From IMG/VR virus record IMGVR_UViG_2703719366_000016: a stretch of DNA of 8,080 nucleotides; one strand, given 5' to 3'. This DNA is from a virus. Taxonomy: Duplodnaviria; Heunggongvirae; Uroviricota; Caudoviricetes. Positions within the stretch are counted from its first letter, which is position 1; each line of letters opens with the position of its first letter. Below, one piece after another: positions 6,001 through 8,080 of this stretch. Position numbers: made by a program.

Positions 6001-8080
6001 TGGATCGACTCACAAACACGCAGATAGCAGCCATGACAGGTATTCATCACACTCATGTTTGCGCTGCCAAGCGCCAGCTTATTGAGCGTAAATTCCTCAT
6101 TGCTGATGGCGTGAAAATCGGAGTGAACAAGGTGGTTTCTCAGTGGATTAGCCAGGACAGCTTAACATTAGCTAAAACAGCTAATAAAACATTAGCCAAG
6201 TCGGCTAATGGGTATAAGCCAAGTCAGCTAAACACAAAAGACAATATACAAAAGACAATAAATACAAATACCCCCTTACCCCCTAACGGGGATGGCGATG
6301 GGCAGGTTAAACCTGAACGTCGCAAGGCAGAACGAATCGACTACGAATCCTTCCTGAACGCCTACAACACCGAAGTCGGTGACAGACTTCCACACGCTGT
6401 TGCGGTCAACGAGAAACGAAAACGCCGCCTGAAGAAAATTATCCCGCAACTGAAAACGCCAAACGTGGACGGTTTCAGAGCGTATGTCAGGGCGTTTGTG
6501 CATCAGGCCAAGCCGTTTTACTTCGGAGACAACGACACGGGCTGGACGGCAGATTTTGATTACCTGCTGAGGGAAGATTCGTTAACGGGAGTTCGGGAAG
6601 GGAAGTTTGCAGACAGGGGGATTGCATGAGACAGGATATCGAAGCTAGCGTTATCGGTGGCCTGCTGATTGGTGGATTAACTCCAACCGCCAGTGACGTT
6701 CTGGCAACGCTGGAGCCGGAAGCGTTTTCAATTCCGCTCTACCGGAAAGCCTTCGAGGTTATTCGCAAGCAGGCGAGAAACAGAAACCTAATCGATGCGC
6801 TGATGGTTGCCGAGGCGTGCGGAGAGGAGCATTTCACGTCAATCCTGATGACCAGCAAAAACTGCCCGAGTGCCGCAAACCTGAAGGGATATGCCGGAAT
6901 GGTCGCGGATAACTATCACCGCCGTCTGGTGCTGGAAATCATGGATGAAATGCGTGAACCAATCCAAAGCGGAACCATCGACGCATCGAGTCAGGCGATG
7001 GATGAACTTGTAAAGCGTCTTTCAGCCATCAGAAAGCCCCGTGACGAGGTTAAACCTGTACGGTTAGGGGAAATCATCACTGACTACACTGACACGCTTG
7101 ACAGGCGTCTGAGGAACGGAGAAGAGTCAGATACCCTGAAGACCGGAATCGAAGAGCTTGACGCTATCACTGGAGGGATGAACGCAGAAGACCTGGTGAT
7201 TATCGCCGCTCGTCCTGGTATGGGGAAAACCGAACTGGCGCTGAAGATTGCCGAAGGTGTGGCAAGCCGCGTTATTCCTGGTTCTGACGTCCGGCGCGGG
7301 GTATTGATTTTCTCAATGGAAATGAGCGCATTGCAGATTGCAGAGCGAAGCATTGCCAACGCCGGGAGGATGTCGGTTAGCGTACTGCGAAATCCTGCAT
7401 CGATGGATGACGAGGGCTGGGCACGTGTTGCTAACGGCATGAGTCAGCTTGCAGATTTGGATGTATGGGTAGTCGATGCTTCGCGGTTATCGGTCGAAGA
7501 AATACGCTCAATCGCAGAACGGCATAAGCAGGAAAATCCAAACCTGTCACTCATCATGGCGGATTATCTTGGCCTGATTGAGAAGCCGAAAGCAGACCGC
7601 AACGACCTCGCAATTGCTCACATCTCCGGAAGCCTGAAGGCGATGGCGAAAGACCTGAAAACACCGGTTATCTCCCTGAGTCAGCTTTCGCGCGATGTTG
7701 AGAAGCGACCAAACAAACGCCCGACAAACGCAGATTTGCGTGATTCAGGAAGCATTGAACAGGACGCAGACTCAATCATCATGCTCTATCGGGAAGCGGT
7801 ATATGATGAGAACAGTAGCGCCGCGCCATTTGCTGAAATCATCGTGACGAAAAACCGTTTTGGCTCGCTTGGTACAGTTTACCAGCGGTTCTGTAACGGA
7901 CACTTTGTTGCATGTGACCAGGATGAAGCCAGACAGATTTGCACAGCATCAAATGCACCTGCTGCGCGTGGCAGACGATATGCACAAGGGGCTGACGTAT
8001 GACCATCTACATCACTGAGCTAATAGCAGGGTTATCGTTACTAATGGTTCTTACTGAACCGCCCCGGGTTTCCTGGAGAG

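Follow-up and report, generated by a model that had tools for sequence, protein, structure and literature searches.

Where does replication begin in a Shiga toxin 2 (Stx2) prophage of Escherichia coli O157:H7, and what is the meaning of the four repeats that lie within its initiator gene? The stretch of DNA analysed here (8080 nt; IMG/VR record IMGVR_UViG_2703719366_000016; 'the window' below) is the immunity and replication region of such a prophage, which is lambdoid. Its O-family initiator gene contains four dyad-symmetric repeats (iterons) followed by an A-rich tract (Table 1). On comparative grounds, iterons and tract together are very probably (roughly nine chances in ten) the replication origin of a lambdoid prophage with a P22/HK97-type replication module. 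The evidence obtained directly consists of the anatomy of the locus, the conservation and geometry of the sites across the protein family, the co-variation of sites and protein, and a constraint that acts on the DNA.

Four initiator-binding repeats and an AT-rich tract inside gene O have stood in the textbooks on lambdoid phages since about 1980; classical lambda genetics assigned origin specificity to the N-terminal domain of the initiator and the choice of partner to its C-terminal domain. The origin described here is already known in kind, since it has the textbook lambda/P22 layout and its sequence is identical to that of long-deposited phages. The lambda O protein binds four repeats of ~20 bp in the middle of gene O, and gene 18 of P22 holds four different repeats of ~20 bp (PMC8022706). 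The O proteins of lambda, 933W and P27 have been studied on their own iterons by footprinting, electrophoretic mobility shift assays and DNA bending, and the AT-rich tract was dispensable for binding (PMC7466680).

Four iterons within the initiator gene

A repeat search returned a single family of four 18-nt copies (6147–6164, 6167–6184, 6191–6208 and 6214–6231). Each contains a version of the 17-bp dyad TTAGCC-N5-GGCTAA, starting at 6148, 6168, 6192 and 6215, respectively (iterons 1–4), with start-to-start distances of 20, 24 and 23 bp; the first begins one codon past the end of the N-terminal domain (6146). The first-pass annotation of this DNA had claimed four dyad-symmetric iterons inside the initiator open reading frame (ORF; 5808–6629), and all four are indeed there, although their symmetry is uneven (perfect arms in iterons 2 and 3, agreement at 4/6 positions in iterons 1 and 4). 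The two perfect copies differ in arms and centres: iteron 2 reads TTAGCT-AAAAC-AGCTAA and iteron 3 TTAGCC-AAGTC-GGCTAA, so that iteron 2 has a C-to-T change in its left arm and a matching G-to-A change in its right arm. The peptide that had been given for this segment, LTLAKTANKTLAKSANGYKPSQLNTKDNIQKTINTNT, is the correct translation.

Other signals were sought around the repeats. A promoter scan found no sigma-70-like site in 5500–6400, Rfam gave no RNA family at the origin (the sole match in the window being the cIII thermoregulator), and the DnaA box TTWTNCACA is absent from the whole window, so that there is no sign of DnaA-box involvement at that stringency. A terminator-like match on the minus strand (6190–6210) consists of the iteron 3 palindrome and a T run, and was not read as a terminator. 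An inverted repeat at 6295–6308/6310–6323 (14 nt, 79% complementary) might have been the equivalent of the palindrome found rightward of lambda ori, but this idea was dropped because P22 diverges there. When 6143–6236 was folded as single-stranded DNA, hairpins formed at iterons 2 and 3 (−17.6 kcal/mol; z = −4.65 versus shuffles). Hairpins of the lambda ori iterons have been proposed to activate the OLD defence nuclease, and HK97 is reported to be OLD-sensitive (preprint 10.64898/2026.07.10.737580).

A constrained A-rich tract adjoins the iterons

The A-rich segment that had been noticed beside the iterons follows iteron 4 directly, at 6232–6270. It has a GC content of 0.30 and an AT skew of up to +0.64, with A exceeding T on the top strand, and it includes a tandem 14-mer (ACAAAAGACAATAT/ACAAAAGACAATAA, 6234–6261). 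In a nucleotide alignment the tract is identical to P22 base for base; it is part of an island (6228–6287) that shows 93–97% identity to P22 gene 18, as against 40–70% elsewhere in the gene.

For a wider comparison, GTDB was scanned (one genome per species) with an alignment of three N-terminal domains, which yielded 80 O-family loci from ~75 species, belonging to Enterobacterales and a few other Gammaproteobacteria. The 45 nt past iteron 4 are AT-enriched in 77 of 79 of these loci (0.70 versus 0.52 for the ORF; A 0.56, T 0.14). Most of the O-family loci listed, lambda included, carry ACACAAAAGACA (N5-6) CAAAAGACAA there, across many classes of iteron. Column variability was then computed from 69 distinct sequences of the window's arm class, i.e. 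those sharing its type of iteron arms; a whole-protein scan of IMG/VR, which returned only loci at least 99% identical, served for the count of polymorphisms and not for co-variation. Third codon positions vary at 4 of 13 sites in the A-rich tract and at 87 of 94 in the N-terminal domain (P = 2e-6).

This constraint bears on the strongest of the alternatives, namely that the sites do bind the initiator while replication starts elsewhere, their role being autoregulation, copy-number control, incompatibility or that of a relic. The module uses its own DnaB-type helicase and not a lambda-P loader, so initiation could be elsewhere; moreover, no experiment mapping the origin of this iteron class was found and the P22 origin annotation is itself based on similarity. 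Yet a tract next to iteron 4 that is constrained at the DNA level, that is the best-conserved piece of the gene relative to P22 and that has similar counterparts across the family is what an unwinding element predicts, and what a pure regulatory site does not. In addition, lambda hybrids in which the whole P22 18-12 region has been substituted replicate, and replication specificity moves with that region (PMC3349717). We consider a start of replication elsewhere improbable.

A further idea, which we put forward tentatively and hold to be somewhat less probable than its opposite, is that the tract is a sequence-specific element, beyond easy melting; it is based on the motif shared across iteron classes, on the conserved third codon positions and on the island of P22 identity. 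Two readings, compatible with each other, would fit it. In the first, the A-rich strand, once open, may be recognized by a common factor, be it the conserved part of the initiator or a protein of the host. In the second, the tract may be a shared crossover at which a cassette of N-terminal domain and iterons is swapped against a cassette of C-terminal domain and helicase. The alignment of initiator proteins contains chimeras, e.g. P0012, which combines a window-type N-terminal half (with its iterons) with a P22-type C-terminal half; together with the island of P22 identity, these make the tract look like a crossover point of module exchange.

The repeats are constrained as DNA

Since the spacings of 20 and 23 are not multiples of three, the four copies are read in three frames. 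A peptide repeat (LAKTAN and LAKSAN) results only from iterons 2 and 3, whose distance of 24 nt keeps the frame. The 'repetitive protein linker' of the first-pass annotation therefore holds for these two iterons and fails for iterons 1 and 4, which are read in other frames.

Variability follows the iteron arms. Only 23% of the columns are variable in the arms, compared with 75% in the iteron centres (spacers) and 88% between iterons; the corresponding values for the N-terminal domain are 93% at third and 24% at second codon positions. At third codon positions, 5 of 16 arm bases are variable, compared with 87 of 94 bases of the N-terminal domain (Fisher P = 2e-7). The same pattern is seen in the protein. 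Among 28 homologs (71–100% identity) the residues S115, S118, L121, A122, A125, N126, L129, A130, A133, N134, P138, Q140, L141 and N142 are invariant; within the segment S115–N142 this set coincides with what the arms encode, and the residues encoded by the centres and by the gaps between iterons vary. Because the arms are kept in three frames and at third codon positions, the constraint is on the DNA and not on the peptide, and the earlier proposal, in which the protein has to accommodate repeats imposed at the DNA level, is borne out by both the frames and the conservation of synonymous sites.

The converse, a tandem peptide repeat selected for some property of the linker, with the DNA repeat as a by-product devoid of any function as a site, could appeal to LAKTAN/LAKSAN and to the invariance of these residues in the homologs, but it does not account for the unrelated ISQDSL and YKPSQL that iterons 1 and 4 encode with the same DNA arms, nor for a dyad symmetry that is meaningless at the protein level, nor for the conservation of third-position arm bases. 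Furthermore, relatives keep the geometry, yet their arms, and hence their peptides, change completely. The frame analysis effectively refutes this explanation, which we regard as very improbable.

Geometry is conserved across the family while the arms change

The arrangement was searched for without reference to the window's iteron sequence, by scoring groups of four similar 18-mers, spaced 18–28 nt apart, and taking the best. In the window the best group scored 86 of 108, whereas composition shuffles scored 52.7 ± 2.6 (maximum 63) and none of 68 other windows of 300 nt exceeded 58. With the degenerate 17-mer TWAGCYARRWCRGCTWA, both strands of the 8080 bases gave four matches, which are the iterons only, where 0.01 would be expected from shuffles. 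Lack of conservation in homologs had been named beforehand as an observation that would count against an origin; instead, the scan found four dyad repeats of 17–18 bp in the same place, just downstream of the N-terminal domain, in ~75 of the 80 O-family loci. The idea that the repeats reflect chance or low complexity in AT-rich coding DNA has nothing in its favour except the modest GC content of the region; it is refuted by this conservation of place and geometry and by both of the above scores, and its probability is negligible.

The spacing is 20/24/23 in 45 of 75 scored loci, and 19/24/23 or 20/24/24 in 21 more. The sequence of the arms is far from constant: at least 12 classes can be distinguished, the four copies in a locus sharing their arms and the arms differing between classes. 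These classes include TCCCTC..GAGGGA (lambda), TTTACC..GGTAAA (P22), GTCACC..GGTGAC, GTCTCT..AGAGAC, TTACCC..GGGTAA and TTCCCC..GGGGAA. The class of the window (consensus TTAGCC..AGCTAA) comprises nine loci, in each of which the N-terminal domain shares at least 61% identity with that of the window. More generally, the identity of the arms climbs with that of the N-terminal domains, from 0.46 at 40–50% domain identity to 0.89 at 75–90%, and the two are correlated across the family (Mantel rho = 0.49; none of 2000 permutations as high).

In the four-repeat scan, five loci (L119, L124, L140, L152 and L153) gave scores at background level or close to it; two of them, L124 and L152, have early stop codons in the initiator ORF. 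Variation in copy number was also seen. In locus L108 (Trabulsiella guamensis), TTTACCGAATCGGTAAAA occurs unchanged at least four times, every 24 nt exactly (1044–1133), with more copies downstream, and L112, L132, L135 and L151 have an extra, closely spaced iteron copy (18/20/24).

The initiator protein and a model for initiation

Pfam Phage_rep_O (PF04492) matches residues 19–113 of the initiator (E = 5.8e-33), covering positions 1–95 of the 95 in the profile, and PHROG 345 ('replication initiation O-like') matches over the full length (E = 4e-105). The C-terminal part is covered by the PHROG 345 match and shows weak matches to families annotated as DnaD-like loaders. An AlphaFold2 model built on a 28-sequence alignment was poor (mean predicted local distance difference test score, pLDDT, 49; predicted template modelling score 0.31). 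The homologs listed were the 120 closest, all at least 71% identical, and so the alignment was too shallow. The secondary structure of the model, itself of low confidence, comprises helices at 45–58, 70–77 and 81–93, strands at 97–100 and 103–106, and helices within 179–263. Residues 40–108 (three helices and a beta-hairpin) have pLDDT values of 54–75, residues 109–176 values of 30–38, and residues 177–264, which are helical, values of 45–64. Such a profile is compatible with a protein whose two folded parts are connected by a segment lacking structure. Residues 114–155, which are encoded by the iterons and the A-rich tract, lie inside the stretch of low values. The first-pass annotation had called this region an inter-domain linker, and pLDDT values below 50 at 109–176 are compatible with that designation, though they are not proof of it in a model that is poor overall.

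By homology and published work, initiation probably follows the lambda model, transferred to this module. Dimers of the initiator N-terminal domain would bind the four 17-bp dyads, each subunit contacting one half-site (TTAGCC/GGCTAA). As the sites are about two helical turns apart, the bound proteins would assemble into a single wrapped complex, an 'O-some', whose strain would open the adjacent A-rich tract (6232–6270). The C-terminal domain of the initiator would then bring in the phage-encoded helicase specified by the next gene, instead of host DnaB recruited via the lambda-P loader. With the sites lying inside the initiator reading frame, the residues between the two protein domains are dictated by the sites.

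Several points weigh against this interpretation. No published binding or origin-activity data were found for initiators of the HK97 type or of the type named Eru2 (see below), and literature text queries with the iteron sequences returned nothing. Iterons 1 and 4 are imperfect dyads. Neither a winged-helix fold nor a disordered linker can be read from so poor a structural model, and a search of the PDB with the initiator sequence gave no match at E ≤ 1. An insertion sequence (IS) lies beside cIII, and the prophage may be defective even with its origin intact. Finally, functional coupling and physical linkage cannot be told apart by the co-variation described above on its own; the sites are direct neighbours of the part of the gene that codes for the N-terminal domain, so that linkage alone yields some correlation. 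Copies that are alike within a locus and different between classes nevertheless require selection for a common binding partner. On balance, the proposal of an iteron origin embedded in the initiator gene has held in all its predictions at the sequence level, i.e. the domain, the position, the spacing, the P22 rep_origin feature and the conservation in homologs.

Genomic context

According to the ORFs and their Pfam matches, the genes follow one another as cI, cro, cII, orf53, O, helicase, which is the order of a lambdoid early-right operon (Table 1). The origin is placed as expected for such an operon, downstream of cro and cII and with the helicase gene next. The start of the helicase gene overlaps the stop of the initiator gene (ATGA, 6626–6629), and its product matches Pfam DnaB_C (E = 1e-77) and the DnaB N-terminal domain (E = 5e-13). 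Over the segment 5600–6700, phages Nil2 (AJ413274), 1717 and 2851 and several Stx2a phages show 100% identity to the window; the value is 98.7% for HK97 and ~98% for some P22-like Salmonella phages, e.g. ST104. The segment was matched in 1401 of 5426 complete E. coli genomes, in 394 of them over at least 80% of the query length.

Table 1. Coordinates of the origin, its genes and the neighbouring features in the window (aa, amino acids)
Feature	Position	Strand	Sequence or product	Evidence and remarks
IS3-family transposase	55–1091	+	orfA and rve-domain orfB	
cIII	1094–1246	−		ORF; Pfam
ea10-like and N genes		−		ORFs; Pfam
S24/HTH repressor	4204–4856	−	WP_001302016.1	Pfam
cro	4974–5189			ORF; Pfam
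cII	5331–5627			ORF; Pfam
53-aa ORF				between cII and the initiator gene
O-family initiator gene	5808–6629	+	273 aa; WP_000539354.1	ORF; Pfam; PHROG; BLASTP
N-terminal origin-binding domain (predicted)	5862–6146	+	aa 19–113	Pfam; helices and beta-hairpin in the model
Iteron 1	6148–6164		TTAGCCAGGACAGCTTA; encodes ISQDSL	arms agree at 4/6; starts at codon position 2
Iteron 2	6168–6184		TTAGCTAAAACAGCTAA; encodes LAKTAN	perfect 6-nt arms; starts at codon position 1
Iteron 3	6192–6208		TTAGCCAAGTCGGCTAA; encodes LAKSAN	perfect 6-nt arms; frame as iteron 2
Iteron 4	6215–6231		TAAGCCAAGTCAGCTAA; encodes YKPSQL	arms agree at 4/6; starts at codon position 3
A-rich tract, presumed DNA-unwinding element	6232–6270	+	encodes TKDNIQKTINTN	39 bp
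C-terminal helical domain, P22 gp18 type	6336–6626	+	~aa 177–273	presumed phage-helicase recruiter; BLASTP; PHROG 345; predicted helices
DnaB-type helicase gene, P22 gene 12/HK97 gp55 type	6626–8002	+	458 aa; WP_001248388.1	ORF; Pfam

On the left side of the window, the IS3-family element adjoins the 3' end of cIII, and 33 Ns (283–315) mask part of it. The 5' region of cIII keeps the lambda cIII thermoregulator (Rfam RF01804; 1201–1259, minus strand; 88.5 bits), and the C-terminus of the protein is altered. Strain TR01 carries an otherwise identical prophage with an intact cIII-kil-gam-bet segment at the position of the IS, which argues that the copy in the window was interrupted or truncated on that side. 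A DUF2528 protein of 122 amino acids is encoded between cIII and N (1319–1687, minus strand). Between N and the repressor gene, a 173-aa ORF (3181–3702, minus strand) occupies the place of lambda rexAB; it is without a Pfam match and matches PHROG 2602, a family whose function is unknown.

A strong terminator-like hairpin (12-pair stem and T run; 5576–5603, minus strand) lies inside the 3' end of cII, and the conserved 33-mer ACTGGATCAATCCACAGGAGTAATTATGACAAA is found at ~5635–5668, just upstream of the 53-aa ORF. This 33-mer is described as covering the promoter of oop together with the 5' end of its RNA (PMC3349717). Hairpin and 33-mer together point to an oop-type antisense RNA, as in lambda and P22; the Rfam scan of the window gave no match at the oop-like region.

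The replication unit named Eru2

A RefSeq O157:H7 genome whose DNA is 100% identical lists the initiator as WP_000539354.1, the helicase as WP_001248388.1 and the repressor as WP_001302016.1. These three accessions were named Eru2A, Eru2B and Eru2r, respectively, by Llarena et al. 2021 (PMC8044961), who presented Eru2 as a non-lambdoid, previously undescribed replication unit and whose paper mentions neither iterons nor HK97 nor P22. By its sequence, Eru2 and the HK97 gp54/gp55 module are one and the same; the module belongs to the P22 gene 18/12 type and has what reads as a canonical lambda-family origin. Given 98.7% identity to HK97 gp54/gp55 and homology to P22 18/12, the label 'non-lambdoid' does not fit. 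Such a relabelling is a small correction rather than a discovery, and it bears on proposals that replication-module typing be used as a marker of the behaviour of Stx phages.

Comparison with known systems

What the analysis adds to this known kind of origin is, first, the exact coordinates and the arm class (TTAGCC-N5-GGCTAA) of an origin that is unmarked in the records examined, no rep_origin feature being present in those of Nil2, HK97 or the RefSeq strain TR01. It also adds direct evidence of constraint at the DNA level and a family table in which a nearly invariant geometry is combined with many specificities. With ~75 loci and at least 12 arm classes, this table provides material for the question of how an initiator and its sites shift specificity together.

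Lambda ori is the experimentally defined archetype. Its iterons, annotated in J02459 at 39034, 39054, 39078 and 39101 (to 39118), have the same 20/24/23 spacing as those of the window and likewise lie as 18-bp dyads inside the initiator gene, just past the N-terminal domain, and the A-rich tract of lambda opens with the same ACACAAAAGACA motif. The two initiators are 42% identical in the N-terminal half only, BLASTP similarity ending at residue 149, and the arms differ (TCCCTC..GAGGGA in lambda, TTAGCC..GGCTAA in the window), so the window does not have the lambda iteron sequence. The C-terminal domain of lambda O is unrelated and binds lambda P, which hijacks host DnaB, whereas in the window the next gene itself encodes a DnaB-type helicase. 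The module is not a lambda O/P module proper. The same distinction separates it from 933W and P27, which are Stx prophages too and have their origin inside the O gene (PMC7466680), but which combine six lambda-like iterons with a lambda-type O/P pair, where the window combines four iterons of another class with a gene 18/12-type pair.

HK97 (gp54, O-like; gp55, DnaB-like) stands closest. Its four iterons and their spacing are identical to those of the window and gp54 is nearly identical to the initiator; in the modules of HK97, Nil2, 1717 and 2851 nothing of substance differs from the window. The comparison with the lambda and P22 iterons that had been proposed as a check gave the same position and the same 20/24/23 spacing in both, and the unbiased four-repeat scan placed repeats with this spacing right after the N-terminal domain in lambda, P22 and HK97 alike.

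P22 shares the type of module, an O-like initiator with a DnaB-type helicase (gene 12) and four iterons spaced 20/24/23, and its RefSeq record (NC_002371) has a rep_origin feature at 32840–32984, inside gene 18 and at the place homologous to that of the window; the annotation reads 'similar to phage lambda', i.e. it is based on similarity. P22 gp18 and the initiator are 51% identical across residues 10–269, the C-terminal domain included, but their N-terminal domains are only ~40% identical. In line with this, the arms of P22 (TTTACC..GGTAAA) differ from those of the window (TTAGCC..GGCTAA), all four copies in concert, and the origin specificity is not that of P22. With both arms and N-terminal domains different, the two initiators are not expected to be interchangeable. 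The replication module of the window is thus of the P22 gene 18/12 type and belongs to a different origin-specificity class.

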